Below, piece by piece: positions 27,201-63,822 of a DNA stretch of 64,000 nt (positions are counted from its first letter, which is position 1; each line of letters opens with the position of its first letter). Origin of the DNA: Promethearchaeia archaeon (GTDB taxonomy: Archaea; Asgardarchaeota; Lokiarchaeia; Sigyniarchaeales; SOKP01); assembly GCA_046483985.1 (NCBI GenBank), contig JAWOCD010000022.1, positions 16 through 64,015 of the forward strand, given 5' to 3'. The notes under the pieces are model-generated. The model ran no database searches and had not been told where the DNA came from. It saw only the letters and a list, made by a program, of their open reading frames with translations. The position numbers and the translations under genes were made by a program.

Positions 27201-28241
27201 ATGAAAGAGATCAAGGGAATAGAAGGAGATTACCTTCAAACAAAAGAAACTAATCTTTTTTTCGACATCAAGGGATTAGTACATCCTGAAGAAAGAAAAA
27301 TCTGTTTTATCCGATTTTATCAAGATCCGGACGGAGATCGGGTAAGAAAAGGGAAAAAATATACAAAGATTTACAAGTTAGCCGAGCGTTATGAGTTTTT
27401 AAAGGAAAAGTATCCCCAATATCTCTTTTATTCGGATCAACGGGACCTCTTGCTTCAAGGAGTCCCAAAAGAGGAGATAAAGAAGATTTACACGCCCAGG
27501 GATTATTTTAATCGTTTGCAAGATAAACACTCCTTGTCAAGAATGGAAAAATGTTCTCTTCAACTATGCCACTTCTTAATTGAGAATAGTCACCTTCCCG
27601 AAGATGCGATTGGCATCACCGGCTCCCCTATGGTAAGCTTAAGTAAGGAGAAGTCTGACATCGATTTAATCATTTATGGAACCGAAGTTGGTCGGAATTT
27701 TCAAGATAGTATGGCAGACATTTTAAGAGCTGGAGATTTTTGCAGAAAATATAATATGCGTGAGTATCAATCGCATTATCGATGGAGGGCTGGTGGTTCT
27801 GGGATCCCGTTTGATAAATTCCTTAAGAGTGAAAAACGGAAACTCCATCAAGGAATGTATAAAGGATTTGAATTTTTTATTCGCTATATAAAAAGTCCAG
27901 AAGACTGGCCAAGTTCTTATTATGATTACCAATATAAAGATATGGGGAGAATTAAGATAAATGCCAAGGTCATTGAAGATAAGGATTCGATATTTACCCC
28001 ATGTACGTATAAAGTTGATAATGTTCAAATCTTAGAAGATAAAAACCTAAATGATGCAATAGATGATAAATTGGTTGATCAAGTTAAATCCTACCGAGGT
28101 CGTTTCTGTGAACAAGCCAAGAAAGGGGAAAATGTACTAATTGAAGGAAAACTGGAGAAGGTTATGGAGAAGAAGAAGGATTTTTATTACCAGATTCTAC
28201 TTCAAGACCAGACAAGAGATAAAATGCTCATTTTAAACTAA
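27201..28241 (+). CDS. Predicted Pol-beta-superfamily nucleotidyltransferase with a C-terminal OB-fold-like region
   Basis: IGITGSPMVSLSKEKSDIDLIIYG is a G-S...D-x-D minimal NTase motif. The C-terminus (KKGENVLIEGKLEKV) is OB-like. It starts 6 nt after mptA ends. Confidence 0.45.
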   Translation: MKEIKGIEGDYLQTKETNLFFDIKGLVHPEERKICFIRFYQDPDGDRVRKGKKYTKIYKLAERYEFLKEKYPQYLFYSDQRDLLLQGVPKEEIKKIYTPRDYFNRLQDKHSLSRMEKCSLQLCHFLIENSHLPEDAIGITGSPMVSLSKEKSDIDLIIYGTEVGRNFQDSMADILRAGDFCRKYNMREYQSHYRWRAGGSGIPFDKFLKSEKRKLHQGMYKGFEFFIRYIKSPEDWPSSYYDYQYKDMGRIKINAKVIEDKDSIFTPCTYKVDNVQILEDKNLNDAIDDKLVDQVKSYRGRFCEQAKKGENVLIEGKLEKVMEKKKDFYYQILLQDQTRDKMLILN

Positions 28242-28378
28242 AATATGGTTTCTTGGAACCTTTCCGCTCTATATATAATATTTAGACCGTATGTTCAAAT
28301 TGGAGAAATCTTTAAATATTTTAAAGCCTTAATAATTCCGAAATTAAACTTTTTATTGAATTGAATTTTTAAGAGTAT

Positions 28379-29692
28379 ATGGATACTTATAACGCAGATT
28401 TGCATATTCACAGCCCGCATTCCATTGCTGTTTCCCAATCGTTAAATTTGGACACGATGCTGAAAACTGCAAAGATTAAGGGGTTGCATCTTATCGGGAC
28501 TGGAGATATTCTGCAACCCGATTGGTTTCAATATATGAAGAAAAATCTTACAAAACATGATGATGGAAGTTTTTCCTATAAGGAAATTAATTTTCTTCTG
28601 CAAACCGAGATAGAAGACAAGGAAAGTATTCACCATGTTGTCTTTTTTCCCGATTTTGATACTGTGAAGGAGATCCAGACCCAGTTAGAACCGCATTCCA
28701 AGAATATTTTAAATGAGTGGGGGGGACGACCCCGGGTTAATTTATCTCCTCCGGAACTGGTAGACATCGTTACAGATTCCAATGCGATTATCGGACCCGC
28801 CCATGCTTTCACACCTTACCGGGCTATTTTCCGCCAAGGTAAATTCAATTCTTTAGAAGATTGTTATCAAGATGCCACCAGTAAGGTGGATTTTCTTGAA
28901 TTAGGTTTATCGGCCAATACAGAATTAGCAGATAGGATGGAATGTCTCAAAGATGTCTCCTTTTTGAGTAATAGTGATGCGCATTCCCAAAAACCCACCT
29001 CATTGGGACGAGAATTTAATAAATTTGCTTTAGAGACTCCGTCTTTTGAAGAAATACGTCTCGCTCTTCGTCGAAAGGATGACAGGAAAGTAACATTAAA
29101 CGTGGGATTACACCCCAAGCTGGGAAAATACTACAATATGTTCTGCGGAAAATGTAGACGCCGCGTCTTATTTAAAAAAATGAAAAAAAAGAACAAAAAC
29201 CCCTTTACCAGTTATTCCATTACCGAAAATTTTATTATTTATCAGGTAGATAATCCAGCAGAACGTCGCAAAAAATATATTAATAAGGTTTCCAAAAAAA
29301 ACGTCACGTGTCCAGCGTGTAAACAGAAAACTGGAAAAAATTATAAAATGAAGCTGGGGGTAAGCGAACGAATAGATGTGATTTCCTCCTATCCAGAACC
29401 CAAACATCCGACTCACCGACCGGAATATATAAACGCGGTTCCATTGTATGATATTTTAAGGGCGATAAAAGGCATTAAGAGCAAGAATAGCAAAACAGTG
29501 AACAGAGCATACGATAAAATAATTAAGCACCTGGGCAACGAATTTGATATCGTTTTAGATATACCCCTCGCAGAGGTTAAGGAATATAATGAGAAAATTG
29601 GGAAGATCATTGAAGCAATCAGAGAAGATGAAATCGAATACACTCCCGGTGGCGGCGGGACATACGGTGATATTAATCTTCCACAATTTTGA
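28379..29692 (+). CDS. Endonuclease Q-like PHP-domain nuclease with a Zn-ribbon insert
   Basis: The N-terminal ADLHIHSPHS...KGLHLIGTGDILQPDW is PHP metal-binding and closely resembles Pyrococcus EndoQ as I recall it. Cys pairs CGKCRRR and CPACKQK are present. The size is ~430 aa. Confidence 0.7.
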   Translation: MDTYNADLHIHSPHSIAVSQSLNLDTMLKTAKIKGLHLIGTGDILQPDWFQYMKKNLTKHDDGSFSYKEINFLLQTEIEDKESIHHVVFFPDFDTVKEIQTQLEPHSKNILNEWGGRPRVNLSPPELVDIVTDSNAIIGPAHAFTPYRAIFRQGKFNSLEDCYQDATSKVDFLELGLSANTELADRMECLKDVSFLSNSDAHSQKPTSLGREFNKFALETPSFEEIRLALRRKDDRKVTLNVGLHPKLGKYYNMFCGKCRRRVLFKKMKKKNKNPFTSYSITENFIIYQVDNPAERRKKYINKVSKKNVTCPACKQKTGKNYKMKLGVSERIDVISSYPEPKHPTHRPEYINAVPLYDILRAIKGIKSKNSKTVNRAYDKIIKHLGNEFDIVLDIPLAEVKEYNEKIGKIIEAIREDEIEYTPGGGGTYGDINLPQF

Positions 29693-29794
29693 ACTTAAAT
29701 TTTGACTTTCAATATCCCTGGAAAAAGTTGGAACTTTTAGATCTGCTTTTGATTTTGGATAACGAAAAAGAAAAAGATTGTATATGAGTTTATC

Positions 29795-30031
29795 TTATAT
29801 CTCAAATTCCAATTCCAATTCTAAAAGCTCTCCGCAATCGCAAGTTAACCAATCGAAACATTTAATTGCCACAATCATGGATTCAATATTTTCTCTGGTA
29901 AACTTATTACGAAAAACCTTATTATAATCGCAATTTGGGCATGTGATAATCGCTCTTACTCGAATTAGATTTGATCTGGACTCAGAATCCACCAGCTCGT
30001 TTTGCTCGCGATTATTATAATTTATTTCCAT
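29795..30031 (-). CDS. Small Cys-containing (Zn-ribbon-like) hypothetical protein
   Basis: It carries CPNC...CDCG in 78 aa. No recognisable family. Confidence 0.35.
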   Translation of the reverse strand: MEINYNNREQNELVDSESRSNLIRVRAIITCPNCDYNKVFRNKFTRENIESMIVAIKCFDWLTCDCGELLELELEFEI

Positions 30032-30599
30032 CTATAATCCACATACCCTTATTATATTATAAATGAAACAAATCAGCTATATAAATTTTTATACTTTTAT
30101 TTATTTATCAAAAAAGCTTAAAAAATGAATTTCACGCCTTTAGGCGTTAGTAGTTCAAACTCATAGGAAAAAGATTAAAATGTGAATTTTTAGAAAAAGA
30201 AGGGAATTATTTCCCCTCTTTTTTAGTCGGTGTAGTCGGAGTAGTACTTAGCGTAACCGTATCCTTCTGTGGGTGGAGGGAGGAATAATTTTTTTTTTGT
30301 TTTATTCCTTGTTTTGCTTCTATCTAATATTATTTTCCACATTTCATATCAAATGCAGTAATATCTATGTGATATCAAATGAGATCAACTTTATCACTCG
30401 ACTTCTAGATTAAAAAAATTGGGGATGTAAACATCCTTGGATATGGGTTTCTGATTTCCGTGCTCATATCGTTTATTACGATGATAGGCTTAATATCCAT
30501 TTATCGGAAAGAAAGAAAGAAGTTTTAAAATCTTTTAATTTTTATTTTTTTTTATTTGCTTAGATATTTTCGTATTTGAATTGCAGTTGAGAATATGTT

Positions 30600-31754
30600 T
30601 TAACCAGCGTCACGGATCTTTTTTTCGAGTTCGCTCAGATCCTCATCTTCCTCCCCCTCCTCTTCAGAAGTTTCCGATTCATCAGTTTGTGTTCCCTCTC
30701 CAGCAGCTTGAATTTGTTTTTCTAACTCACTTAAATCCTCATTCTCGGAGGGGGTTGCTTCTGAAGTGTCTGTATCCGATCCAGCGGCTTGAATCTGCTT
30801 TTCTAAGTCCGTTAATTCTTCTCCGCCTCCTTGAGATTCCTGCGATCTGTCATCCTTAGAGACCTCTTGGGCCATATTTTCTAAATCTTGTGCGAATTTG
30901 GCTTCTCTTTTTTCGAATTTCTTCTGAAATTCTGTTGCCTCCTTTTCTGCTTCCTTTTTCTGCTTTCGATATTCCCGATTTTCCTTTACTTCCTGCTTGG
31001 CTTTTCTCAATTCTCGTTTGAATTGTTTCAATTGCGTTCTGAGCATTTTGGGCACAATTTCTCCCTCTTCTTCAAGTTCCTTTATATCTTTTTCCAATTG
31101 GACAACATTTTTTTGCATCATTTCCACATAGCCCTCTTCGAATTGTTTGCTCATCCCTTCGGTCATTGCCCAATAATTCGATTCAAAATCCCTCTGTTTT
31201 TTGTAGGCATCCTTGAGTTTTTGATCCACCTCTTCGGGCTTTTCCGAGATGCTGGAGGGAGTAAGCGTCACTTGTTGGTTCATCATGATTTTTGTACTTT
31301 TTCCCAAGTCCTTATGCGTTATTTCAGCATATCCCGAAACTAATGCAACTGATACTTTCTCCTCATCTTTCACATGAATCCAGAAGAAATGATCCGAATC
31401 GACTAGATACTCAATTTCAGCTAGGGGTAGGGAGATCGGCCCGTAGGTTCGCACTCGAAATAAGCCATCCATTAAAGTGACCTTTGTAATAGTGGCGCCC
31501 TTAATATTCAGCTTCGCTTTCGAGTTCGGAAATAGACTGACATAGGTGTAATGATCTGTATTTTCATCGCTAATATCGATTGCATATGAATCTTCCCCTG
31601 TGATGATGGTATCACCGTCCTTGATCGGCACCACGAGGTCCTTCTCTAAATCCTCCTCATTTTCGGGGGCTCTCGCTTCTACTTTCTGTTTTTCCCCATT
31701 CCTTTTGATATATACGGTACCTTCCGTTTGATTTAATTCTACTTGTTTCTTCAT
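30600..31754 (-). CDS. Hypothetical protein with an N-terminal FecR-like beta domain, a central coiled coil and a C-terminal acidic region with three DL(S/T)(D/E)LEK(Q/K)I(Q/R)(A/D)AG repeats
   Basis: The N-terminus (TVYIKRNGEKQKVEA...PIKDGDTIITGEDSYAIDISD...LFPNSKAKL) resembles the FecR-domain pattern. The K/E heptad-rich middle is coiled-coil-like. The triple repeat is seen directly. Confidence 0.5.
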   Translation of the reverse strand: MKKQVELNQTEGTVYIKRNGEKQKVEARAPENEEDLEKDLVVPIKDGDTIITGEDSYAIDISDENTDHYTYVSLFPNSKAKLNIKGATITKVTLMDGLFRVRTYGPISLPLAEIEYLVDSDHFFWIHVKDEEKVSVALVSGYAEITHKDLGKSTKIMMNQQVTLTPSSISEKPEEVDQKLKDAYKKQRDFESNYWAMTEGMSKQFEEGYVEMMQKNVVQLEKDIKELEEEGEIVPKMLRTQLKQFKRELRKAKQEVKENREYRKQKKEAEKEATEFQKKFEKREAKFAQDLENMAQEVSKDDRSQESQGGGEELTDLEKQIQAAGSDTDTSEATPSENEDLSELEKQIQAAGEGTQTDESETSEEEGEEDEDLSELEKKIRDAG

Positions 31755-32089: not shown

Positions 32090-32887
32090 TTAATTATTTT
32101 CCCTTAGGATTACTACGTCTACATATAACTCATAGTTTTCATCTTCGTCCATATCATGGATTTTTACCTTTTCTACGGAGTTTGTTCCCAAAATTTCCAA
32201 AAGTTCGGACTGATATAAGGTTTTCACGTCAGATCGTTTCAATTTTTTCTGCAGTTCTTTATTACCGGGTGGATTTTCGCTTGATGTGACTAACACCACT
32301 CTTCCGGTGTGTTTAGTCAGTTGGATCGCTAATTTGATAGATTTATCTCCAGTATCGATAACAAGCACTCGTTTATCAGTGAATTGTTTCAAGTTTTCTA
32401 CTTCTTCATATACCCCTTTTCCTGAAAATTCATCAATACCTTTAATTATTTCAAAATCGATTGCTTCACATGTTGTTTTAGCTTCAACGGATTGCTCTTC
32501 GCCTGTTCTATAATTGTCTATTGCAGCTTTAAGAGCACCAGCAGCAAGATTGGAGCAATGCATCTTGATGGGGGGCAATCCTTCCAATTCCTCTGCCACA
32601 TCGCTTCTTGTTATTGTATATGCTTCTTCTAATTTCATCCCTTTTGCCATTTCGGTGGTCATTGATGAGGTTGCCACCGCTGAACCACAGCCAAATGTTT
32701 TAAATTTTATATCCGTGATGATTTCCTCTCCTTTTTCATTTTTTCCCACATTGATAAACATTTCCATGATATCCCCACAGACGGGATTTCCGACTTTTCC
32801 ATAACCATCGGGGTTTTCTATTTCCCCCACATTTCGTGGTTTTCGAAAATGGTCCATTACTCGTTCGGAATATTGCGTTGATTTCAT
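32090..32887 (-). CDS. iscU: IscU/NifU-N scaffold fused to a degenerate thioredoxin-reductase-like NAD(P)-binding domain
   Basis: The N-terminal 130 aa contain GNPVCGD, FKTFGCGSAVATSS and MHCSNLA, the three IscU Cys ligands. The C-terminal ~125 aa align to the TrxR central domain (GKGV...KRVLVIDTGDKSIKLAIQL...RVVLV) but lack its CxxC. Confidence 0.8.
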   Translation of the reverse strand: MKSTQYSERVMDHFRKPRNVGEIENPDGYGKVGNPVCGDIMEMFINVGKNEKGEEIITDIKFKTFGCGSAVATSSMTTEMAKGMKLEEAYTITRSDVAEELEGLPPIKMHCSNLAAGALKAAIDNYRTGEEQSVEAKTTCEAIDFEIIKGIDEFSGKGVYEEVENLKQFTDKRVLVIDTGDKSIKLAIQLTKHTGRVVLVTSSENPPGNKELQKKLKRSDVKTLYQSELLEILGTNSVEKVKIHDMDEDENYELYVDVVILRENN

Positions 32888-32890: not shown

Positions 32891-34084
32891 TTATTCATTC
32901 ACCTCCTTATAATTACTAAATTCAGGGGGAGTTAATGGCGAGAGGGTTCTTAATCGCTTAACTATATCTGGCAAAACTTCAATTACTTTATTTATATCAT
33001 CTTCTTTTGTAAATCGTCCTAATGTGAATAAGAGGCTCCCATGGGCTTCTTCATGTAGTAAACCCATTGCAATCAAAGTATGAGAGGGTTCTAGAGTTTT
33101 TGAAGTGCACGCCGATCCTGTTGCAGCTGCAATTTTCTCGTCTTTTAACCCCAAGATCAAAGATTCCCCTTCAATAAAATCAAATCGGAAGTGAGCATTA
33201 TGCGGTAATCGATTTGTAGGGTGTCCATTGAGGTATGACTTCGGGATAGTATCCAAGATACCCTCTATTAATTTATCACGTAAATGTGCAAGCCTTTTCG
33301 CCTCTGCATTGATCTCGCTCTTCATGATTTCAGCGGCCTTTCCAAAACCAACAATTCCAGGCATATTATGAGAACCCGAGCGCATCCCTCGTTCTTGACC
33401 TCCTCCGATGATGATCGGATTTACTCTAACTCCTTTTTTAAGATATAAGGCTCCGACCCCGCGTGGACCGTAGATATCATTGGAAGACAGCGTAATCATA
33501 TCTATTGGGTTTTTCTGAACATTTATATGTATGTCGCTTTCACTGGCAACCGCATCTGTATGAAATAAAATGCCATTCTCTGCGGCGAGCTTACTTATTT
33601 CTTTTATGGGCTGGATAGATCCCACCTCATTGCTCGCGGTGGAAATGGATATCATGATCGTCTCATCGCGTATAAGATTCCTTAATTTATCCAAACTTAC
33701 AATTCCATATTGATCCACTGGCACTCTACTCACTTCAAATTCTTCGCGTTCCAAATATTTTCCTAAATTCAAGATCGAAATATGTTCAATTTCAGAAATT
33801 ATTATATGATTTCCTTTCTGCTTATTTCGTAAGGCGCCCCCAATTAATGCCAAATTATTAGATTCTGTTGCACTTCCGGTAAATATAATACTTTTTGGAT
33901 CGGGTGCATGGATAAATTTGGCAACTTTTTCTCGGGCGTGTTCCAGAGCTTCTGTTGCTATATCTCCAGTTCCATGCAAGGATGCGGGATTTGCAAATGT
34001 ATCTGTAAAATAAGGTTTCATTTCCGTAAAAACCCTTGGATCTACGGGCTTTGCCGCTTGATAATCTAGATATACTTGTTTCAT
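32891..34084 (-). CDS. iscS: Cysteine desulfurase (IscS/NifS, class V PLP)
   Basis: LSSNDIYGPRGVGALY is at the PLP-Lys position, SGSHN is present, and the active-site loop is ATGSACTS. It is followed by iscU. Confidence 0.9.
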   Translation of the reverse strand: MKQVYLDYQAAKPVDPRVFTEMKPYFTDTFANPASLHGTGDIATEALEHAREKVAKFIHAPDPKSIIFTGSATESNNLALIGGALRNKQKGNHIIISEIEHISILNLGKYLEREEFEVSRVPVDQYGIVSLDKLRNLIRDETIMISISTASNEVGSIQPIKEISKLAAENGILFHTDAVASESDIHINVQKNPIDMITLSSNDIYGPRGVGALYLKKGVRVNPIIIGGGQERGMRSGSHNMPGIVGFGKAAEIMKSEINAEAKRLAHLRDKLIEGILDTIPKSYLNGHPTNRLPHNAHFRFDFIEGESLILGLKDEKIAAATGSACTSKTLEPSHTLIAMGLLHEEAHGSLLFTLGRFTKEDDINKVIEVLPDIVKRLRTLSPLTPPEFSNYKEVNE

Positions 34085-35056: not shown

Positions 35057-35959
35057 TTAAGGGAGTGTCTCGGAAAGAGGTTCATTTAGGCTCCCAGTCC
35101 GATAGCCTTCTAAATCGAGTGAGATATAGGTAAAACCTAACTTTTTGATTTTATCTACTATATCTGAATTCTTTAAAATTACCTGAAAATCATTTTTTTC
35201 AATTTCGATACGTGCCACTTCTCCATGGAATCGAACGCGAACTTGATGAATTCCTAAATCTTTAATTAATTGCTCTGCTTTATCAATTTTTTTAATTTTT
35301 TTTTGGGTAATTTTAACACCGTATGGGAATCTCGAGGATAAACAAGCTAAAGATGGTTTGTCCCATGTTTCTAAGCTCATCTTCTTCGATAGTGCTCTTA
35401 TTTCTTTTTTGGTTAATTGAACTTCCTTTAATGGACTTATAATATCCAGTTCCTCCAATGCTTTTATTCCTGGGCGATAATCTCCTAAATCATCGTAGTT
35501 TGTCCCGTCCAAAACATAATTTATTCTTTTTTTCTCCGCCAACTTTTTTATTTTTGAAAAAAGCTCTTGTTTACAGAAATAACAGCGATCCTTGGGATTT
35601 TTGACGAAATTTTGATTTTCCATCTCTTTTGACTTGATGATGATATGTTCGAAACCCCACTTTTTTGCTAATTTTTTAGTAAAGTCCAATTCATCCCTTG
35701 GAAAGGTAGGAGAGTTACTAGTAATGGCAATAACATTATCTTTTAGAATAACTTGGGAAACTCTTAGAAGAAAACTGCTATCAACCCCTCCGGAAAAAGC
35801 TATTGCGACTTTTTCCATTTTCTTCAAAATTTTCTTCAAATTCCTAAACTTTATTTGAGTCGTTTCCTTCATTTCCGTCATTCTCTGTATTGGAGTTAAT
35901 TTTAAATCTGATTTAAATTTAAGAGCAATATTTGCATTAAAAGAAAAATTATAGGACAA
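35057..35959 (-). CDS. PP-loop ATP pyrophosphatase of the LarE / TIGR00268 type (ATP-dependent sulfur transferase-like)
   Basis: VAIAFSGGVDSS is the PP-loop, and LACLSSRFPYG is the LarE-type Cys motif. The true start is probably an internal Met (MTEMKETT, about nt 35881). Confidence 0.7.
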   Translation of the reverse strand: MSYNFSFNANIALKFKSDLKLTPIQRMTEMKETTQIKFRNLKKILKKMEKVAIAFSGGVDSSFLLRVSQVILKDNVIAITSNSPTFPRDELDFTKKLAKKWGFEHIIIKSKEMENQNFVKNPKDRCYFCKQELFSKIKKLAEKKRINYVLDGTNYDDLGDYRPGIKALEELDIISPLKEVQLTKKEIRALSKKMSLETWDKPSLACLSSRFPYGVKITQKKIKKIDKAEQLIKDLGIHQVRVRFHGEVARIEIEKNDFQVILKNSDIVDKIKKLGFTYISLDLEGYRTGSLNEPLSETLP

Positions 35960-35971
35960 ATAACGAATTCT

Positions 35972-36964
35972 TCAAGTAAATTTTTCGATGTATTTACAAT
36001 ATGTGCAAGTTTTTCCATTACTACAAGGATAACCGCAGTTTTTGCAAAAATTGTAGTTTACTTGAGGTTTTATTTTGTCCCTGTTTTTATATAAGATTTT
36101 TGATAATCTTAAAAAACTCTCTAAAAGATTATATTCAATTTCAGGCACCAAATTTTTCAATCTTTGAATAATCTGGAGCACTTTTTTTCTCGTTATGGGT
36201 TCCTCCTCTCTGTAAGGACAATGAGATCGATAGTACCTGAGGTTTTTTAAATTACAATACAAGAAAATTTCCTCCTCGGGGATATGCATTAACGGAGTTA
36301 TTTTTTTTACATAATACTTTTTTAATGTTTTTGACCGTTCTCTAAAGATGTATTGATTTCCAATTAAATAAAACCGTTTGTATAAGATGTTCATAAGGTA
36401 TGTTTCGGCTATATCTGTCAGGTTATGACCCATGGCAAGAACGGTCCCCTTTAGTTCTTTTGCACCTTCATTAAGCAGTCGTCTTCTAATTATTGCACAA
36501 TAGTTACAAGAATATCTTTTATTTTCTTTACCTTTCATTGTTTTAATGATCTCGTCTAATGTCATTCCGACTCTTCTTCTGAACGAAATAATCTTATATT
36601 CTACATCTAATTTCTCACAGAAGGCCTTCGCGAACTCAACACTCTTGTCTCGATATCCTTTAATACCTTCATCAATGATTAAAGCAGTTATAGAATTTAA
36701 ATTGTCGTTATTAAGTAAAAGTTTATTTAAGTTGTAAAGCAAAGCAATTGAATCCTTACCTCCAGAGAGCCCAATGATCAATTGATCCTCGGGAGTCCAT
36801 AGTTTTGACCTTGAAATCATCCTTTTGATTCTGTTTTCAATGGATTCAATAAAACAACTTCGGCATAAATTACGGTCAGAATATCTCTGTTCAATGACTG
36901 GTGATTTCCCACATTGCGTACATTCATCTAACTTTAAATGAATTTGATAATTTGAACGATTCAA
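35972..36964 (-). CDS. TtuA/NcsA-family tRNA 2-thiolation enzyme (PP-loop, Fe-S dependent)
   Basis: There are N- and C-terminal CxxC...CxxC Zn fingers and the PP-loop GLSGGKDS. Cluster ligands are CNYCAIIRRR and SHCPY. Confidence 0.8.
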   Translation of the reverse strand: MNRSNYQIHLKLDECTQCGKSPVIEQRYSDRNLCRSCFIESIENRIKRMISRSKLWTPEDQLIIGLSGGKDSIALLYNLNKLLLNNDNLNSITALIIDEGIKGYRDKSVEFAKAFCEKLDVEYKIISFRRRVGMTLDEIIKTMKGKENKRYSCNYCAIIRRRLLNEGAKELKGTVLAMGHNLTDIAETYLMNILYKRFYLIGNQYIFRERSKTLKKYYVKKITPLMHIPEEEIFLYCNLKNLRYYRSHCPYREEEPITRKKVLQIIQRLKNLVPEIEYNLLESFLRLSKILYKNRDKIKPQVNYNFCKNCGYPCSNGKTCTYCKYIEKFT

Positions 36965-37009: not shown

Positions 37010-37396
37010 TTATGATTCTTTTTTCTTTTGGCGGTATTTTTCAACTGCTTCATGCAATCCATCAGCGGCTAAATTACTGCAGTGCATTTTAACTTGTGGT
37101 AATCCATCGAGCGCGTCTGCGACATTCTTTCTCGTTATCTTCATACCTTCGTCTAAGGTTTTTCCCTTTGCTAATTCTGTTATCATACTTGATGTTGCTA
37201 TAGCAGCTCCGCACCCAAAAGTTTGGAAGGAAATATCCTTAATGATTTCTTCTCCATTTTTTTCTTTAACTTTTAAATAAATATACATGAGATCACCGCA
37301 TACTGGGTTTCCAACTTCTCCAACTGCATCGGGATCTTTCATTTCTCCCATGTTTCTTGGGTTTTTGAAATGGTCCATAACTTTATCTGAATACAT
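37010..37396 (-). CDS. iscU: IscU Fe-S scaffold (second copy, stand-alone)
   Basis: GNPVCGD, FQTFGCGAAIATSS and MHCSNLA are present in 128 aa. Confidence 0.9.
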   Translation of the reverse strand: MYSDKVMDHFKNPRNMGEMKDPDAVGEVGNPVCGDLMYIYLKVKEKNGEEIIKDISFQTFGCGAAIATSSMITELAKGKTLDEGMKITRKNVADALDGLPQVKMHCSNLAADGLHEAVEKYRQKKKES

Positions 37397-37444: not shown

Positions 37445-38662
37445 TTAAACTTCTTTTTTCAGCGGGGACATTTTTCTAAGCCGTTCAATAACTGGAGGTA
37501 GTTTCTCTAAGAAAAAATCCACATCCTCTTCTGATGTAAATCTTCCTAATGTAATTCTAAGAGAACCATGTGCCTCTTCTGTCTCTAATCCAATCGCTAG
37601 TAGTACGTGAGATGCTTTTAACTCCTTTGAAGAGCAAGCTGATCCGGTGGAAGTTTCTATACCTTCCATGTCTAAACTTAATACCATTGACTCACCTTCA
37701 ATATATTTAAATCCCACATTGACGTTATTTGGAAGACGCCGAGACGGATGACCGTTTAAATAAGAATCCTCGATATTATTTAAGACGGTATCTATTATCT
37801 TATCTCTTAAGCTCTTTAATCTTTTTGCCTCTTCTTCCATCTTGTTTTCTGCTAATTCCGCTGCTTTGGCAAATCCTGCGATTAATGGTACCGCTTCGGT
37901 GCTAGGTCTTATTTTTCTCTCATGACCTCCTCCTTCCATTAATGGTTTAATGAATCTTCCTTGTCCCTTCTTCCTACCTCCGTTCCGGATGTAGAGTAAT
38001 CCTATACCCTTAGGCCCATAAATTTTATGACCGCTAACCGAAAGTAAGTCTATATTCATTTCATCCACATCAATGGGGATCTTTCCAAATGCTTGAACCG
38101 CATCAGTATGAAAAAGGATATCGTGCTTTTTTGCAATCTTTCCGATTTTTTTAATTGGTTGGATCGTGCCTATTTCATTATTAGCAAACATAACCGAGAT
38201 AAGAATTGTATTTTTAGTTATTGAATCCTCCAATTCCTTTAAATCAATTAATCCATTCCTATCTACGGGTAAATAGGTAACATTAAAACCTTGCTTTTCT
38301 AATTCTTCACAAGGATGTAATACTGCGTGATGTTCTATTTTTGATGTGATAATATGATTTCCTCTTTTTTTATTTTTATAGGCAACTCCTTTAATTGCTA
38401 AGTTATCTGCTTCTGTTCCTGAAGAGACAAAAAAGATATCATCTTTATCACTGTTAATAAGATTAGCAATTTTCCCTCTTGATCTTTCCATCACTTTTGT
38501 AGCCTTTTGTCCGAGGGAATGTAAACTTGATGCGTTTCCATAATTAGTTTTGAACTGTTTACATATTACTTTTATAACTTCTGGATCCATTGGAGTGGTA
38601 GCCGCGTTATCCAAATATATATAATGTAAATCTTTCAAATTCTTACCCTTTAAGATTAGCAA
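37445..38662 (-). CDS. iscS: Cysteine desulfurase (IscS/NifS, second copy)
   Basis: DNAATTPMDP, SGHKIYGPKGIGLLY (PLP Lys) and the active-site loop STGSACSS are present. Confidence 0.9.
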   Translation of the reverse strand: MLILKGKNLKDLHYIYLDNAATTPMDPEVIKVICKQFKTNYGNASSLHSLGQKATKVMERSRGKIANLINSDKDDIFFVSSGTEADNLAIKGVAYKNKKRGNHIITSKIEHHAVLHPCEELEKQGFNVTYLPVDRNGLIDLKELEDSITKNTILISVMFANNEIGTIQPIKKIGKIAKKHDILFHTDAVQAFGKIPIDVDEMNIDLLSVSGHKIYGPKGIGLLYIRNGGRKKGQGRFIKPLMEGGGHERKIRPSTEAVPLIAGFAKAAELAENKMEEEAKRLKSLRDKIIDTVLNNIEDSYLNGHPSRRLPNNVNVGFKYIEGESMVLSLDMEGIETSTGSACSSKELKASHVLLAIGLETEEAHGSLRITLGRFTSEEDVDFFLEKLPPVIERLRKMSPLKKEV

Positions 38663-45614: not shown

Positions 45615-46778
45615 ATGAACATCAATTGGGAAAATATACGAAAAAATCAATTTCCATCACTAAAAAATCAGATTCACATGAAAGCCGCTGGAGGATCCCC
45701 CATGTGCAAGTCTGCCTATAGCAAGGGCACAAAATATTTTAGGAATATTTATAAAAAGGGAGATATCTTCTGGGACCACTACTTTAAGGAAATGGAGGAA
45801 GCTAGAGAGTTGGTTGCAGATTATTTAAACTCGAATACAAATGAAATAAGTTTTCTAATTAACACATCCTCGGGTATTAATATCATATCCCATCTACTGA
45901 ATCAAGGAACTATACTTTATCCAGAGGGTGAGTTTCCCTCCTCAATTCTCCCCTTCAAGTTGAAGGATTTTAATTGCATAAAAATTAGATCGAAAAATAA
46001 GAAATATCGAGCCGAAGATATTGAGGAAACTGTTCATTCAAATCACGATTATTTAATCCAAAGTTACGTTCAATATCTCACGGGATTTAAGCAAGAATTA
46101 GGTAAAATTGGGAGGATTACCTACAAGAATAAAGTTATTTATATAATAAATGCGACTCAAGCCTTTGGTGCTTTACCTCTGGATGTTAAAAGACAAAAAA
46201 TTGATATATTAGTGGCATCTGGCCTTAAATGGGCGTGTTGTGGCTACGGAGCCGCCATTCTCTATGTTAAAGAAAAAATTCTCGAAGATAAAAACTTACC
46301 TTGTCTCAGTTGGTTGAGCGTGAGAAATAAGTTTGCAATGGATAATGATAATACTGATGTAATCAAACAAACAAAAGCAATGGACAGTTTTGGGGGTACT
46401 CCCAATTTTCCCGCTTTAATGGCATTAAAAGGAAGTTTAGAATTGATAAAAGATATCGGTGCGGGTGATATCAATGTAGGCATCAGAGAAATTTACAAGA
46501 GGATAAAATTTCTCACAAATAAGTTTATACGAGAACTTCAAGACCTGGGTCACAAAATAATTAGCCCCTTAGATTTAAAGTATCGTTCGGGTATAATTAC
46601 AATGCAGCATCAGAACGCGAAAGCGATATATAAGGAGTTATTAAAAAATAACATCCATATCTCACTTAGAAATTATCCCTCCTCCCAAAATAAGGATTTA
46701 TTACGATTTGCCCTCCATTACTATAACAATTTAGAAGATATCCGGAACGTAGTTTCGGTTTTAAAGAGGTGTGGATAA
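45615..46778 (+). CDS. Class V PLP-dependent aminotransferase / cysteine-desulfurase-like enzyme
   Basis: NATQAFGALPLDVKRQKIDILVASGLKWACCGYGAAILYV has the PLP-Lys in an S-G-x-K-W context, typical of the class V fold. Confidence 0.65.
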   Translation: MNINWENIRKNQFPSLKNQIHMKAAGGSPMCKSAYSKGTKYFRNIYKKGDIFWDHYFKEMEEARELVADYLNSNTNEISFLINTSSGINIISHLLNQGTILYPEGEFPSSILPFKLKDFNCIKIRSKNKKYRAEDIEETVHSNHDYLIQSYVQYLTGFKQELGKIGRITYKNKVIYIINATQAFGALPLDVKRQKIDILVASGLKWACCGYGAAILYVKEKILEDKNLPCLSWLSVRNKFAMDNDNTDVIKQTKAMDSFGGTPNFPALMALKGSLELIKDIGAGDINVGIREIYKRIKFLTNKFIRELQDLGHKIISPLDLKYRSGIITMQHQNAKAIYKELLKNNIHISLRNYPSSQNKDLLRFALHYYNNLEDIRNVVSVLKRCG

Positions 46779-46781: not shown

Positions 46782-48452
46782 ATGAAAAGAGAGGTAAAAT
46801 CTCATAATTGGAGATTTCTTACCCCTATTGGAGGCTTCCACGGAGTTTCTGCTGTTTTTCCCAGATTTCAAGATATTATTGATTACGAAGAGGACCGATT
46901 TTCAGTTTACCAAGGTTATCCTAGATTTGTTACACATCCTGCTATAAGGAATTTGGAAGATCAATGGAAAGAAAAATTCGATGCAGTGAACGCTATAAGT
47001 TTCCATAGTTATCGGTCATCTATTTTCTTTTTGATTGATTACTTTTTCAGGAAAGGCGATAAGATTTACATCGACTCCAGATTAACTTCAAAAATATTCA
47101 CGCTTCTAAATCAAAGTTTTCCCGATATCTTATCTAAAGTAACGAAAGTATCTGAAGCAGATATTCTAATATTTAACAAACCAGTAACTCAAGTTAAAAG
47201 GTCTTTTGAAGATAAGATTCTAATTTCTCTATTGGACAACCCAATGGACGAAAAAGATTTCAAATTTAAAGGGGATTTCTTAATTTGTCATGATCCATTA
47301 AACGATATAGGAGTAATTTTGAAATTCAATGATCAATTCAACAATTTGACGCTTCTCCGAAGACATTGCGGATTTAATGTAAGTTCACGAAAAATCTGTG
47401 GAAATAATGAAACTCTAATTCGAGAAAAATCAAAACTAAAGGATCAATTGAAAAAGCAAATTACCCATTTGGAAAATGTTGAGACGAACTATTGTTATTT
47501 TTATCCCTCTGGCATGGCTGCAGTGTTCATATCGATTTTTTCACTTTTATCAAGCCAAAAGCCGAATTTTATTGGTTTAGGTTCTTTATATGTGGATACT
47601 CTAAAGATTCTAGAAAAATGGTCAGAAAAGTATGGTTTATCGAAGACAGACTTTATTCGTGATGCAATTGAGAAAACTTTAAAGGAACGTATTAGCGAAA
47701 AAACCGCAGGCGTTATTGTTGAAATTCCCTCTAATCCCTTAATCCAACTAGTAGATATAAAAGAAGTAATCAATACAGTCCATTTATATGGCGGAAAAGT
47801 GATTGTAGACAATACTATTGCCACACCTTATAATTTTAATCCATTTGATTATGGAACCGATATCGTAGTTCACAGTTCAACAAAATTTTTAAACGGGAAA
47901 AATGACCATATTGGAGGAATAATCATTACAAAGGAGAAAGAATTGGGTGAAAAAATTAGAAAATTTAATAATCTCTTTGGATTAGATATGGCATTCAATG
48001 ATATAAGGACATTATCTGAAAATATCAAGGGGTTCGAAAGACGGATGGAAAGGATTAATAAGAATACCGAAATCATAGCCAAATACCTAAATAATCATGA
48101 ATATGTGGGGAAGGTATATTATCCCTCCTTAGCTGATAATCCCGATCGGGAAATTTTGAAAAAATATCTAAAGGGAGGAAGCGGTCTTCTTAGTTTTGTC
48201 TTAAAAAATTCAAATATCGAAGTTGCACGTCAATTTTATAATAATGTTTTACCTCCCATTTTAAAAGGTCCTAGCCTCGGTTCAGAAAGAAGTTTGTTAT
48301 CTCCCTACGTAATGATGACACACTATAAATATTCCGAAACAGAATTAAAACATTTAGGGTTAAATCGCTATTTAATGCGTCTATCCGTGGGAACGGAACC
48401 TTTTGAAGATATTATATACAGCTTAAAGTATGCTTTAAATTCTTTAAAATGA
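46782..48452 (+). CDS. Cys/Met-metabolism PLP enzyme (MetY/MetB/MetC family) with a ~230-aa N-terminal extension that looks like a degenerate copy of the same fold
   Basis: The C-terminal part has YFYPSGMAAV, VVDNTIATPYNFNP and the PLP-Lys block HSSTKFLNGKNDHIGG. The N-terminal part has YQGYPRFVTHPAIRNLEDQW...AISFHSYRSS, which is paralogue-like and has no Lys block. Confidence 0.7.
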   Translation: MKREVKSHNWRFLTPIGGFHGVSAVFPRFQDIIDYEEDRFSVYQGYPRFVTHPAIRNLEDQWKEKFDAVNAISFHSYRSSIFFLIDYFFRKGDKIYIDSRLTSKIFTLLNQSFPDILSKVTKVSEADILIFNKPVTQVKRSFEDKILISLLDNPMDEKDFKFKGDFLICHDPLNDIGVILKFNDQFNNLTLLRRHCGFNVSSRKICGNNETLIREKSKLKDQLKKQITHLENVETNYCYFYPSGMAAVFISIFSLLSSQKPNFIGLGSLYVDTLKILEKWSEKYGLSKTDFIRDAIEKTLKERISEKTAGVIVEIPSNPLIQLVDIKEVINTVHLYGGKVIVDNTIATPYNFNPFDYGTDIVVHSSTKFLNGKNDHIGGIIITKEKELGEKIRKFNNLFGLDMAFNDIRTLSENIKGFERRMERINKNTEIIAKYLNNHEYVGKVYYPSLADNPDREILKKYLKGGSGLLSFVLKNSNIEVARQFYNNVLPPILKGPSLGSERSLLSPYVMMTHYKYSETELKHLGLNRYLMRLSVGTEPFEDIIYSLKYALNSLK

Positions 48453-52515: not shown

Positions 52516-53631
52516 ATGAATGAAATAGAAATTCTCCGGAAAAAGACCGAACTGTTGGTAAAAGGTGTAAATGTTTCTCACGATCTTTTAAAACATTTAG
52601 ATTTTGTGAGAAAAGGAGGAGCTGGCCCGTTAAACGGCAAATATTTTCTCCTTGATGCAGATAAAACTCTAGCAAATGTACCCTTATGGAATGAAAAATC
52701 ATCCCATTCTGATCTATATTTAAAATATTCCGGGGGATCAATGTTCGAAGTTTTTGATGAAAAAAATAAACTTTTTGACAGAATTGAGCTAATAGAATCC
52801 CCAGCCTTTTATGAATTGGAGACATCTGACGGAATTCCAATGAAGAAGATTGCGCTAATGCATGGGATTGATTGCTTAGCAAGTACAATTTATCAAAAAT
52901 GTAAACATTGGTCTTGTGGAAAAGCGTGCAAATTTTGTGGGATTGAATTGAGTTTACAGAACGATAAAACCATACTTGAGAAAAACGGTCGTCAGCTTTC
53001 CGAGGTTATTAGTGCGGCAAAAATGGAAGAGAGGTGTACTCATCTTACGTTAACTAGTGGAACCGTCCAATCAAAAGGTAAGGGGGCAGAAAAGTATATC
53101 AGAATCTTAGAAAATCTCAACGAAAAGTTTCCGAACTTGCCTATTCACGTACAAATTGAACCAGTAAATGATTTTCATTATCTTAGTTCGTTAAAGGAAG
53201 CGGGAGCCGATACAATTGGAATCCACATAGAGTTACTAAATAAAAAATTAAGAAAACAAATTACTCCAGGTAAAAGCAATATATCATGGGAAACATTCAA
53301 AAAAAATTGGAAGTTTGCGCTCAACACATTTGGACCGAACCAAGTCGAATCATATGTTTTGTACGGGTTCAGAAAGGATCCCGCTAAATTTATCCAAGAT
53401 GTTGAGAGAATTATTTCGCTGGGAGTCATTCCCTATATTACTCCAGTCAGAAAAACGGGAAATAATGATCTTCCCCTCTATCCCATTACTATAAATGATA
53501 TGGTCTTCGTCTATAGAATGGTGGCTATAATGATGAAAAATTATGGTGTCAATCCCTTGGCTCATAAGGCAGGTTGTGTCCGATGTGGTGGATGTTCTAC
53601 CATTAATGAAGCTTACAAGTTAATAGTATAG
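52516..53631 (+). CDS. Radical SAM protein with a ~125-aa N-terminal domain (RKGGAGP motif) and a C-terminal CxxCxxC
   Basis: CGKACKFCG is the CxxxCxxC cluster motif. It also has LTLTSGT, IHVQIEP and a C-terminal GCVRCGGCS. Confidence 0.7.
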   Translation: MNEIEILRKKTELLVKGVNVSHDLLKHLDFVRKGGAGPLNGKYFLLDADKTLANVPLWNEKSSHSDLYLKYSGGSMFEVFDEKNKLFDRIELIESPAFYELETSDGIPMKKIALMHGIDCLASTIYQKCKHWSCGKACKFCGIELSLQNDKTILEKNGRQLSEVISAAKMEERCTHLTLTSGTVQSKGKGAEKYIRILENLNEKFPNLPIHVQIEPVNDFHYLSSLKEAGADTIGIHIELLNKKLRKQITPGKSNISWETFKKNWKFALNTFGPNQVESYVLYGFRKDPAKFIQDVERIISLGVIPYITPVRKTGNNDLPLYPITINDMVFVYRMVAIMMKNYGVNPLAHKAGCVRCGGCSTINEAYKLIV

Positions 53632-53666
53632 TAAATCGATCATTAGTTATATAATAAAAAAATAAC

Positions 53667-54665
53667 ATGAGAATAAAAAAAATAAGAATCTCGACTGGTT
53701 CAGCCTCACTATTGGGTTTAAATTTTATTAAATTTAAATTCCCAACTACAACTTGTTATTTAATGACCCACATAGAAGGGAGCTGTAGGGCCAATTGTGG
53801 ATTTTGTCCCCAAGCAAGAACCACAAAAAATAAGGGAGATGAACTTTCAAGGATTAAATGGCCCTCCTACGATTTCAAGCTCTTTTTAGATAAACTAAAA
53901 CAAACATCTGCTCAGAATCTTTTCGGGAGGATTTGTCTACAGACATTAAATTATCCAGAAAATTTCGAAGATGCAAGAGAAATTGTTTCGGAGATTTCTA
54001 ATCTCTCAAATCTTCCTATATCGGTTGCTATACCTCCAATGCCGAAAAAGCAGTTAAGGGATCTGAAAAACGCGGGAGTACAAAAAATAGCGATAGCTCT
54101 TGATGCGATAACTCCTGAAATTTTCAACCGCGTAAAAGGAAAAGGCGTTAATGGTCCGTACGACTGGAATTCACACTTTAAGTGCCTTGAAAAAGCTATT
54201 GAGATTTTTTCCGAGGGTTTTGTAAGCACCCACTTGATCATGGGATTGGGAGAGTCTCATAAGGAATTTCTTACGATTGTTGAGAAGTTACATAATTTAC
54301 ATGTAACTGTCTCATTATTTCCATTTAATCCTGTACCGCACACTAAACTGGAACATAAACAGAGACCAAAAATTACAGAATATCGGAAAATGCAACTTGC
54401 CCACTTTTTGATTGTTAATAACAAAAAAAAAATTGAGGAATTTAGCTTTAATGACGATGGGAAACTAATAGATCTTAATATCTCCCGAAACCAATTACGT
54501 AGATTTGTCTTTCATGGAGATGCTTTTAGGACTTCGGGATGTTCACATTGCAATCGTCCGTATTACACGTCAAGACCATCGGGCCCAATATATAACTATC
54601 CAGCTCGTATGGAGAAAAGTGAAAAAGAGAAGATATTCGCTCTATTAATTAATTACATCAAATAA
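53667..54665 (+). CDS. Radical SAM protein, biotin-synthase-related type
   Basis: It has SCRANCGFCPQ (CxxxCxxC) and a TIM-barrel-like periodicity. Extra Cys residues are present (RICLQT, GCSHCNRPYY). Confidence 0.7.
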   Translation: MRIKKIRISTGSASLLGLNFIKFKFPTTTCYLMTHIEGSCRANCGFCPQARTTKNKGDELSRIKWPSYDFKLFLDKLKQTSAQNLFGRICLQTLNYPENFEDAREIVSEISNLSNLPISVAIPPMPKKQLRDLKNAGVQKIAIALDAITPEIFNRVKGKGVNGPYDWNSHFKCLEKAIEIFSEGFVSTHLIMGLGESHKEFLTIVEKLHNLHVTVSLFPFNPVPHTKLEHKQRPKITEYRKMQLAHFLIVNNKKKIEEFSFNDDGKLIDLNISRNQLRRFVFHGDAFRTSGCSHCNRPYYTSRPSGPIYNYPARMEKSEKEKIFALLINYIK

Positions 54666-54678
54666 TCAAAAGAGAATT

Positions 54679-55704
54679 ATGACCGATAACAGTTTACTGA
54701 GAAAATTCAAGACGGATAATCTTTCGTGGGTCGATTTTAAAAAATTTTTCAATCTTCAATCTGAGAACTTAGATCCTTACCTGAACCTTGCTCGAAAATT
54801 GACTATAAAAAGATTTGGGCACTTATTAAAGATTTATATTCCAGGGGAAAAATTTCCGGCAATAAGTATTACTGGGAATGAGTGTTCTCTGAGTTGCGAG
54901 CATTGTAATGAAAGATATTTGGAGAATATGCATCCTGTATTGAATTCTAAAGATTTAGAGGATTATTTGTTTAGTCTATCCGAAAATGGGGGTGTGGGAG
55001 CTTTAATTTCGGGAGGTTGTGATCCGGATGGAGCAGTACCCTTAGATATATTTTTTAACGCAATTAAAAAGGTAAAAAGGGAAACAGATTTGATCATAAA
55101 TGTTCATACGGGGTTGTTAAATGAATATACGGCATTAAAATTGGCAGAATCCCGAGTAGATGTTATCTCGTTTGATGTAAATATGGATCCAGCAATTATC
55201 AATAATATTTACCATTTAAATAAGGATATTTCTGATTATAAGTGTGCTATGAAGATACTAAAGAAATACAAGCTGAATGTTGTCCCTCATATTTGTATAG
55301 GATTATATTACGGGGAACTCCATAAAGAATTAGAAGCATTAAAATTTATAAAAGAATCTGGAATAAATCCTTCTTTGATTGTATTAATTGCTTTAATCCC
55401 TCCCACTAAATCGATTGATAAATTTGATACACCAGACCCTAAGGATATAGCAAAAGTAATAGCTTTAACAAGATTTATATTCCCTAATACTGAAATATCT
55501 TTGGGTTGTATGCGTCCAAGAAAAAAGATGAAGGTCTCATTAGAAAAGTATGCTATTAAAGCTGGAATCACAAGAATTGAAATACCCTCGAAGAAAACTT
55601 TGAAATGGCTTAAGACAAAAGATCCAAGCATTCAATACAATTTTTATTCGGCGTGTTGTGCAATTCCGAAGATGTATGAAGACTTTACAAGAACGAGGAT
55701 TTGA
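54679..55704 (+). CDS. Radical SAM protein, biotin-synthase-homologue type
   Basis: It has ISITGNECSLSCEHCNE (CxxxCxxC) and ISGGCDPDG. Extra Cys residues are present (HICIG, LGCMRP, SACCAIP). Confidence 0.7.
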   Translation: MTDNSLLRKFKTDNLSWVDFKKFFNLQSENLDPYLNLARKLTIKRFGHLLKIYIPGEKFPAISITGNECSLSCEHCNERYLENMHPVLNSKDLEDYLFSLSENGGVGALISGGCDPDGAVPLDIFFNAIKKVKRETDLIINVHTGLLNEYTALKLAESRVDVISFDVNMDPAIINNIYHLNKDISDYKCAMKILKKYKLNVVPHICIGLYYGELHKELEALKFIKESGINPSLIVLIALIPPTKSIDKFDTPDPKDIAKVIALTRFIFPNTEISLGCMRPRKKMKVSLEKYAIKAGITRIEIPSKKTLKWLKTKDPSIQYNFYSACCAIPKMYEDFTRTRI

Positions 55705-55882: not shown

Positions 55883-56413
55883 GTGAAAAAAAAAATTCCT
55901 CCACATTGTGACACTATGGATGGTCCCGTAGTAGAAGCTGCCAAATCGGCATTAAAATCAAAGGATGCTAACCTAATCTTGCCTTGGGTTCCAAAAGAAG
56001 CAGAAGAAGAGTTAACAGAAGCATTTAATAAGACCTTAAAAGTGAGAAAAAAAGGAGAAGATGAAAAAGAACTAGCAGATCGATGGTTCTTTGAGACTGC
56101 TGTTCGTTTGCATAGGAAAGGAGAAGGTAAAGGGTTTACTGGTTTAAAACCTGCCGGATTAGATTGGGGTCCTGTGGTCCCTAAGGCTGAGGATGCGATC
56201 GAAAGTGAAAATCCAAAAGAGGTTATTGACTTTATTTTGAAAACAGCCGAAGATGAATTAAATAAGCGTTTTCAGAAGGCAATGTCAAAGAAAGACTATG
56301 ATGAAGACGATGTTGAGAGTGCTCGAGAGTATGTCCATTCCATGCTAGGTTTCGTGTTGTTTTCACATCATCTATATAAATTTATCATAAGTGATGAACA
56401 TCACGGAGATTAA
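55883..56413 (+). CDS. Uncharacterised soluble protein with an N-terminal HCDTMDGPVV motif
   Basis: It has a GTG start, 176 aa, and a helical, charged sequence. I believe it belongs to a DUF family defined by an HCDTxDGP N-terminus, but I cannot verify this. Confidence 0.4.
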   Translation: MKKKIPPHCDTMDGPVVEAAKSALKSKDANLILPWVPKEAEEELTEAFNKTLKVRKKGEDEKELADRWFFETAVRLHRKGEGKGFTGLKPAGLDWGPVVPKAEDAIESENPKEVIDFILKTAEDELNKRFQKAMSKKDYDEDDVESAREYVHSMLGFVLFSHHLYKFIISDEHHGD

Positions 56414-63537: not shown

Positions 63538-63822
63538 ATGGGATACGAACTTGATAAAGGTGCTCATTCGGTGTATTCATTAAACTACCATTACATCTGT
63601 TGTGTAAAATCTCGAAGAAAAATATTCGATACCGATGAAATAATCAATAGATTAAAAGAAATTAATATATCGTTAGCGGAAAAAAATGATATTAAAATTC
63701 TTAATCAAGAAACCGATCTTGATCACATACACATTATATTCAAACCGAGTTATCTCTTGGTTACGACCGGTCAAGTTACATTAGATCAATTGAAAAAATA
63801 TGTTGACTCACAAGGTGAATAG
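63538..63822 (+). CDS. tnpA: IS200-type Y1 (HUH) transposase TnpA, abnormally short (94 aa)
   Basis: It has YSLNYHYICCVKSRRKIF, the HUH motif DHIHIIF, and the C-terminal KKYVDSQ (catalytic-Tyr region). About 35-40 residues normally found between the HUH motif and the C-terminal helix are absent. Confidence 0.7.
   Translation: MGYELDKGAHSVYSLNYHYICCVKSRRKIFDTDEIINRLKEINISLAEKNDIKILNQETDLDHIHIIFKPSYLLVTTGQVTLDQLKKYVDSQGE

Follow-up and report, generated by a model that had tools for sequence, protein, structure and literature searches.

Three adjacent radical S-adenosylmethionine (radical-SAM) genes in the genome of an Asgard archaeon raise the question of whether they encode a new three-component system for sulfur insertion or a known pair of enzymes next to a gene from another family. 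Asgard archaea are the closest archaeal relatives of eukaryotes. The genes are on a contig of a Promethearchaeia archaeon (JAWOCD010000022.1; GenBank assembly GCA_046483985.1). We analyzed a stretch of 64,000 nucleotides of this contig (positions 16 to 64,015), referred to here as the window. The genes are numbered 1 to 3 in their order on the plus strand (Table 1).

We found that genes 2 and 3 have the characteristics of lipS2 and lipS1, the genes for a two-protein lipoyl synthase. We consider it probable that they encode this pair and that gene 1 is a neighbor from a separate family, not an obligate third subunit. A first-pass annotation of the window had raised the possibility of a new three-component system, and this is not supported by our results. 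The layout described in that annotation was correct: an open reading frame (ORF) listing gave three radical-SAM ORFs, all on the plus strand, with exactly the coordinates and the gaps of 35 and 13 nt that had been reported. Each of the three has its own CxxxCxxC motif, as had been claimed, and each matched the Pfam Radical_SAM model above its gathering score.

Genes 2 and 3 and the two-protein lipoyl synthase

The first-pass annotation had compared genes 2 and 3 to LipS1/LipS2-type proteins. We found that both genes pass the corresponding equivalog models of NCBIfam. Gene 2 scored 329.6 bits against the LipS2 model (NF053743; cut-off 270) and was aligned over the whole profile (positions 1-292 of 292). 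Gene 3 scored 264 bits against the LipS1 model (NF053742; cut-off 230), also over the whole profile (positions 1-268 of 268). For both genes, models of biotin synthase scored far below the LipS2 and LipS1 models. Gene 3 also had a weak match to the Pfam BATS domain.

The additional cysteines that had been pointed out in the two proteins are conserved. Gene 2 has a CX3CX2C motif (C40, C44 and C47) and three cysteines of auxiliary type (C90, C292 and C295), and these are kept in 59-60 of 60 Asgard homologs. Gene 3 has the corresponding motif (C69, C73 and C76) together with C277, a CC pair (C326 and C327) and H204, all of which are kept in 43 of 43 homologs. Mutagenesis of the Thermococcus kodakarensis proteins has placed an auxiliary [4Fe-4S] cluster on C85, C276 and C279 of LipS2 and an auxiliary cluster on C230, C276 and C277 of LipS1, in which H159 is also conserved (Neti et al., PMC9585515). 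The cysteine pattern of gene 2 is that of C85/C276/C279 in Thermococcus LipS2, with residues equated by pattern and position and not by direct alignment to the T. kodakarensis protein. Similarly, the cysteine and histidine pattern of gene 3 is that of C230/C276/C277/H159 in Thermococcus LipS1.

Judged by sequence, gene 2 is LipS2 and gene 3 is LipS1; together they make up a two-protein lipoyl synthase of a known type, which is already documented in Asgard archaea. In Asgardarchaeota, LipS1/S2 is more common than LipA and co-occurs with LipM-type transferases (Tanabe et al., PMC10332631). Because LipS1/S2 has already been reported in this group, the pair described here is not a new type of system.

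We infer the chemistry of the pair by analogy with the T. kodakarensis enzymes, which are sufficient for the reaction in vitro and which thiolate C8 first, by LipS2, and then C6, by LipS1 (PMC9585515). LipS2 would abstract a hydrogen from C8 of protein-bound octanoyl-lysine via its radical-SAM cluster and would donate sulfur from its auxiliary [4Fe-4S] cluster. LipS1 would then do likewise at C6, completing the lipoyl group. The spacing of 13 nt between lipS2 and lipS1 suggests co-expression.

In GenBank, the LipS2 gene (P0270) is annotated with 300 aa, and its start is placed 32 codons past that of the conserved N-terminus (window positions 53667-53762). Homologs 332-336 aa long can be aligned to the entire 332-aa ORF, and the invariant residues K5, R7, G11-A13 and C30 are part of this alignment. 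Because these homologs cover the full ORF, the 300-aa call starts too late.

To place the pair in its usual context, we used a LipS2-based scan of metagenomes, which gave 59 Asgard-type loci (L081-L139). Forty of these had enough upstream sequence to be informative about the gene preceding lipS2. The canonical Asgard layout is leuS on the opposite strand, followed by lipS2, an LplA/LipM-like gene (259 aa), lipS1, a cofE/nitroreductase fusion and cofD. Linkage of lipS2 and lipS1 was found in 47 of the 59 loci (the remainder were mostly truncated contigs), and the LplA/LipM-like gene was between the two in 58 of 59.

The window differs from this layout. An LplA/LipM-like gene was not found in the 64 kb by tblastn with an Asgard LplA/LipM-like query, and no scanned window ORF of at least 90 aa matched the Pfam models for a lipoyl domain, GcvH or BPL_LplA_LipB. 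This agrees with the first-pass annotation, which had noted that genes for a lipoate ligase, GcvH and E2 were missing. It had also called the target of the enzymes unknown, which was overstated, as LipS1/S2 act on the octanoyl-lysine of lipoyl domains; the absence of acceptor and ligase is a limit of a 64-kb view and is not evidence that the target is unknown. The LplA/LipM-type gene may be encoded elsewhere in the genome. None of the usual lipS2 partners leuS, cofE and cofD is in the window. The window pair is thus a LipS pair without an in-cluster LplA/LipM-type gene, moved from its usual flanks, and is otherwise an ordinary lipoyl synthase. Such a stripped-down lipS2-lipS1 pair is relevant to how octanoate is loaded onto lipoyl domains in archaea without acyl carrier protein (ACP).

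Gene 1 and its relation to the lipS genes

The family closest to gene 1 is TIGR04043 (MSMEG_0568), one of those suggested by the first-pass annotation, but gene 1 does not reach the cut-off of that family. It scored 270.2 bits (cut-off 303.7; NCBIfam), with residues 11-364 aligned to profile positions 1-351 of 354, including the N-terminal domain and the C-terminal cysteine motif. An Asgard representative (P0100) scored 274.1 bits, also under the cut-off. Proteins that exceed the cut-off are fusions of ~500 aa with a MSMEG_0567/Sll0786 GNAT domain, of the type found in bacterial Nit1C clusters; gene 1 and its nearer relatives are all below it. Gene 1 also scored 158 bits against NF045502 ('variant_rSAM'; cut-off 125), which is a domain-level model and has no functional name attached.

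We searched 1.84 billion representative proteins exhaustively with gene 1 and found 111 clusters at E <= 1e-30. The Asgard group formed one cluster at 50% identity (454 bits), and the next cluster scored 298 bits. A protein of a Promethearchaeia metagenome-assembled genome was 100% identical to gene 1. Homologs with 54-58% identity were present in Loki-, Thor-, Heimdall/Hod-, Odin- and Hermodarchaeota, and the family was found in all sampled Asgard classes. A literature search on MSMEG_0568 and TIGR04043 found no papers, and in papers on Nit1C the radical-SAM gene is listed only as part of the cluster, with its role unknown. We assign gene 1 to an Asgard-wide, uncharacterized radical-SAM family that is related to, yet distinct from, the MSMEG_0568 family of Nit1C clusters.

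Gene 1 contains nine cysteines (C120, C129, C134, C138, C141, C174, C354, C357 and C360), and all are invariant in 43 homologs. These residues suggest that the protein may carry one or two auxiliary Fe-S clusters. The RKGGAGP motif and the C-terminal CxxCxxC (C354/C357/C360) that had been singled out earlier are both present. They too are invariant in the 43 homologs, the former as an R-x-GGAGP loop.

We found that the predicted fold of gene 1 is closest to that of lipoyl synthases. An AlphaFold2 (AF2) model (pLDDT 86.7, pTM 0.89) was compared to the Protein Data Bank (PDB) with Foldseek, and the best 16 matches were all lipoyl synthases (LipA of M. tuberculosis and T. elongatus, and human LIAS), with E values of 1e-8 to 3e-6, target-normalized TM scores of 0.51-0.62 and 12-16% identity. 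MqnE, RlmN, NifB and BioB followed. By sequence, the gene-1 family profile had no match to solved structures at E <= 0.1. The N-terminal domain (residues 1-126), modeled separately with AF2 (pLDDT 73), had a best Foldseek E value of 0.44 against the PDB, and no fold was assigned. We considered whether gene 1 might be a true LipA and rejected this: CX4CX5C and the C-terminal RSSY are absent, and the score against the lipoyl synthase model NF004019 was only 16 bits (cut-off 203). The LipA-like core of the model and the cysteines point to C-H functionalization, possibly sulfur insertion, as the predicted activity of gene 1.

The three genes had been described as mutually unrelated. This is true of gene 3, for which no pairwise similarity to gene 1 or to gene 2 was found, but not of genes 1 and 2, which are 25% identical over 106 aa (E 2e-6). 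The family profiles of genes 1 and 2 matched with 96% probability, and the match was limited to the generic radical-SAM core. Among the NCBIfam families, LipS2 ranked next for gene 1 as well as for its relatives. Of the characterized proteins, gene 1 is closest in sequence to LipS2 and in predicted fold to LipA, both of which are sulfur-inserting enzymes.

We found that gene 1, lipS2 and lipS1 are not a conserved unit. A survey based on gene 1, with one genome per GTDB species and 8 kb of flanking sequence, comprised 80 loci (L001-L080), all from Asgard archaea. In only two of these, the close relatives L041 and L053, did tblastn with LipS2 and LipS1 detect lipS genes within 8 kb of the gene-1 homolog. 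In the reciprocal survey, a gene-1 homolog was upstream of lipS2 at one of the 40 informative loci (L091). Linkage was therefore lacking at 78 of 80 and 39 of 40 loci, respectively, and the trio failed as a conserved unit in both surveys. In a neighbor-joining tree of LipS2, L091 grouped with L041 and L053, and the window formed a separate deep branch. The neighbor-joining trees carry no support values; their sole purpose was to show whether the two cases of adjacency come from sister lineages, and they should not be over-read.

The gap between gene 1 and lipS2 may contain a promoter. In 35 of 57 canonical Asgard loci, a BRE/TATA-like element (AAAAnCTTAWYTT) precedes lipS2 at position -30 to -32 relative to the ATG; this position suggests that the canonical transcript is leaderless. 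In L041 and L053, a similar element is kept in the 33-nt gap between the gene-1 homolog and lipS2. In the window, TTATATAA is located ~20 nt upstream of the lipS2 ATG. Because the element is retained in the gap of L041 and L053, and because of TTATATAA in the window, lipS2 of the window may keep a putative promoter of its own in the 35-nt gap.

Gene-1 homologs usually have other neighbors. A divergently transcribed gene for ribosomal protein L10e/uL16 was beside the gene-1 homolog in 66 of the 73 loci with enough upstream sequence, and an ACD-alpha-like protein (CoA_binding_2/Succ_CoA_lig, 449 aa) was encoded nearby in 52 of 63 Asgard loci. Genes for methylmalonyl-CoA mutase (MCM) and MeaB were downstream in 30-48 of 80 loci, and an SDR gene was directly downstream in 26 of 80. 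Among relatives with 37-40% tblastn identity (L162-L166), the L16 and/or ACD-like partners recur; in one of them the ACD-like gene begins 6 nt after the radical-SAM gene. In one relative (P0128), the next gene is AIR-synthase-like, as in Nit1C clusters. The association of the gene-1 family with L10e/uL16 and ACD-alpha-like genes is conserved. From this gene neighborhood, in which the recurrent partners are acyl-CoA-binding proteins, we infer that gene 1 may act on an acyl-type substrate. None of the usual partners (L10e, ACD-like, MCM, MeaB or SDR) is in the window.

The closest relative of gene 1 (L001; 58% identity), in the metagenome-assembled genome (MAG) DZ3M.111, is likewise in a different setting (region 6612-11397). 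It is located between a TtuA-like gene and an oxidoreductase gene, with no lipS gene. The TtuA-like gene is 49% identical to that of the window (35972-36964). A DUF6448 ORF, 67% identical to that of the window, is 1.8 kb downstream of the gene-1 homolog on the opposite strand, with no lipS gene between them; it is the only gene flanking the trio in the window that was also found near L001. The same MAG has another gene-1 homolog in the standard context (L047), which suggests that the L001 lineage has a pair of paralogs. Because of this second copy, gene 1 of the window may be a second paralog.

We considered whether, in this lineage, gene 1 might be functionally coupled to LipS2/LipS1 and contribute an accessory or third radical-SAM reaction to lipoate synthesis, with a lineage-specific operon encoding all three. 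Gene 1 might then prepare or modify the acyl chain, or might compensate for the missing in-cluster LplA/LipM-type gene. The single strand and short gaps of the trio, the similarity of gene 1 to LipS2 and to the LipA fold, and the conserved extra cysteines, which are compatible with a sacrificial cluster, are all consistent with coupling, and the octanoyl donor for archaeal LipM homologs is an acknowledged open question (PMC10332631). Nevertheless, we consider coupling unlikely: it is disfavored by the two surveys, by the position of the nearest relative of gene 1 away from lipS, by the sufficiency of LipS1 and LipS2 in vitro and by the restriction of the similarity between gene 1 and LipS2 to the radical-SAM core. 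The promoter-like element that persists after the gene-1 homolog in L041 and L053 argues against obligatory co-transcription. A related view is that an enzyme resembling LipA and LipS2 was recruited upstream of lipS2 in at least two Asgard lineages and joined lipoate assembly there. We regard recruitment, and any true functional link between gene 1 and lipoylation, as somewhat less likely still. If true, the locus would be a genuine three-radical-SAM lipoylation module, in which gene 1 might supply or process the acyl substrate, and would bear on the question of the octanoyl donor in archaea without ACP.

Several observations weigh against treating gene 1 as a mere neighbor. In the clade of L041, L053 and L091, the gene-1 homolog immediately precedes lipS2, with the same orientation and a gap of 33 nt, and this clade is not sister to the window in the neighbor-joining trees. 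For a random order of a few thousand genes, we would expect well under one such adjacency in about a hundred lineages. The recurrence appears to exceed random arrangement, although the independence of the two cases is unproven. The characterized family closest to gene 1 in sequence is LipS2 itself. The missing LplA/LipM-like gene implies that the cluster has been remodeled, so gene 1 might still have a role. On the other side, the window is rich in radical-SAM genes (six among roughly sixty genes), making an accidental adjacency to one of them likelier.

Two alternatives assign gene 1 to other pathways. The family might have a housekeeping function tied to its conserved neighbors, with its position in the window an accident of rearrangement. 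Its members might modify uL16/L10e by radical chemistry, or they might work with the ACD-alpha-like protein on a substrate derived from acyl-CoA. The frequent L10e and ACD-alpha-like genes, their recurrence beside the 37-40% relatives, the presence of the family in all sampled Asgard classes and the fusion of bacterial TIGR04043 members to an acyl-CoA-using GNAT are consistent with such a function. We judge it possible, but clearly less probable than the reading we favor: shared ancestry, not function, may account for conserved gene order in a single phylum, both partners are absent from the window, and the fold search with the N-terminal domain gave no match pointing to an RNA, protein or CoA substrate. 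In addition, we know of no radical-SAM modification of archaeal uL16. It is very improbable that gene 1 is a diverged Nit1C member of the MSMEG_0568 family with the same job in nitrile/cyanide or nitrogen-starvation metabolism. The best model, matched over nearly its full length, and the AIR-synthase-like gene beside P0128 are consistent with that assignment. In contrast, gene 1 is under the curated cut-off and unlike the 500-aa GNAT fusions above it, and genes for a nitrilase, the MSMEG_0567 GNAT, an AIRS-like protein and a flavoprotein are absent both from the window and from the common neighbors of the 80 Asgard loci. We also considered HypE and HypD, encoded upstream of the gene-1 homolog in L041 and L053, as an AIRS-like echo of Nit1C clusters. 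We rejected this as a coincidence: the arrangement is confined to a single clade, and both are ordinary genes for hydrogenase maturation.

Based on these results we suggest that genes 2 and 3 form the LipS2/LipS1 pair and that the adjacency of gene 1 to lipS2 is most likely a lineage-specific rearrangement. The trio is a known enzyme pair plus a neighbor and does not warrant follow-up as a novel system for sulfur insertion. The gene-1 family is a reasonable target for characterization whether or not it is linked to lipoate, with its conservation across Asgard archaea, nine invariant cysteines and novel N-terminal domain.

The sulfur island and other genes of the window

Table 1. Positions of the trio and of selected other features in the window
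Feature	Position	Strand	Remarks
Gene 1	52516-53631	+	371 aa; CGKACKFC = C134/C138/C141
N-terminal domain of gene 1			~125 aa, beta-rich; RKGGAGP loop at residues 32-38
Gap, gene 1 to lipS2	53632-53666	+	35 nt, A+T-rich
Gene 2 (predicted LipS2)	53667-54665	+	332 aa; CRANCGFC = C40/C44/C47
Gene 3 (predicted LipS1)	54679-55704	+	341 aa; CSLSCEHC = C69/C73/C76
DUF6448 gene	55883-56413	+	Pfam DUF6448, 188.7 bits; context only
IscU-like genes	32090-32887 and 37010-37396		
Cysteine-desulfurase-like genes	32891-34084, 37445-38662 and 45615-46778		
LarE and adjoining NcsA/TtuA-like gene	35057-36964	-	

The first-pass annotation had placed the trio at the edge of a sulfur island and had taken this location as a sign of a sulfur-insertion function. 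The island is real: Fe-S, desulfurase, thiocarboxylate-type and Cys/Met genes were found (Table 1). In addition to the genes in the table, it contains genes for a DsrE-like protein, a UbaA/MoeB-type E1 and a SAMP/MoaD-like protein, as well as serine-acetyltransferase-like, CysK, MetX, MetW and sulfhydrylase genes. NadA, ThiW and a gene of the metallo-beta-lactamase fold stand between the island and the trio.

We rejected the idea that the island forms a functional setting for the lip genes. In its canonical form the Asgard operon, between leuS and cofE/cofD, is not near such genes, so the placement of the trio is not conserved and cannot be used as functional evidence. In the window itself, the island and the lip genes are separated by ~14 kb that contain Cys/Met, NadA and ThiW genes.

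Within the island, the LarE-type ATP-dependent sacrificial sulfur transferase (TIGR00268, 340 bits; cut-off 150) directly adjoins a homolog of the NcsA/TtuA-like PP-loop tRNA thiolases, and the flanking genes are DsrE-like, IscS/IscU-like, UbaA-type E1 and SAMP-like. A gene at 46782-48452 (plus strand), between a class-V aminotransferase gene and the SAMP/MoaD-like gene, encodes a pyridoxal phosphate (PLP) enzyme of Cys/Met metabolism with an N-terminal extension of ~210 aa that has no Pfam match. This gene may belong to a protein-thiocarboxylate-dependent route to homocysteine or methionine.

Other parts of the window contain further radical enzymes. The region 21884-27194 contains a further pair of adjacent radical-SAM genes, one of which encodes a CofH/MqnC domain at its C-terminus. 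They adjoin genes for RibD_C, an amidohydrolase and the type I GTP cyclohydrolase FolE2, and the region looks like a cofactor cluster for deazaflavin, menaquinone or pterin. On the minus strand (3723-4730, 9296-11775 and 15057-17555) are genes for a glycyl-radical enzyme (PFL-like plus Gly_radical), a radical-SAM/ferredoxin activase-like protein and two D components of 2-hydroxyglutaryl-CoA dehydratase. Three sizeable ORFs (346, 437 and 384 aa) at 27201-31754 had no Pfam match at E <= 0.01. A short ORF at 63538-63822 (plus strand) matches only the N-terminal half of an IS200-like Y1 transposase domain and is probably a fragment near the contig end.

Comparison with known systems

Genes 2 and 3 share the CX3CX2C motif and the auxiliary ligands with LipS1/LipS2 of T. 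kodakarensis (TK2109/TK2248) and of the bacterial sLpl(AB)-LipS1/S2 pathway. The lipS1 and lipS2 genes are adjacent in many organisms, as they are in the window. Unlike the usual Asgard LipS loci, the window locus has neither the LplA/LipM-type gene nor the leuS, cofE and cofD flanks. No lipT-like gene adjoins the pair.

Gene 1 resembles the TIGR04043/MSMEG_0568 protein of Nit1C clusters over nearly the full length of the profile. Unlike that protein, it is not fused to a GNAT and lacks nitrilase, AIRS and flavoprotein genes as neighbors, and it belongs to a separate Asgard subfamily. The best structural match to its radical-SAM core is classical LipA/LIAS, and both have extra cysteines flanking the core. 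However, classical LipA has CX4CX5C, whereas gene 1 has C120-x8-C129-x4-C134 and no C-terminal RSSY. Compared to LipA, gene 1 adds an N-terminal domain of 125 aa and a C-terminal CxxCxxC.

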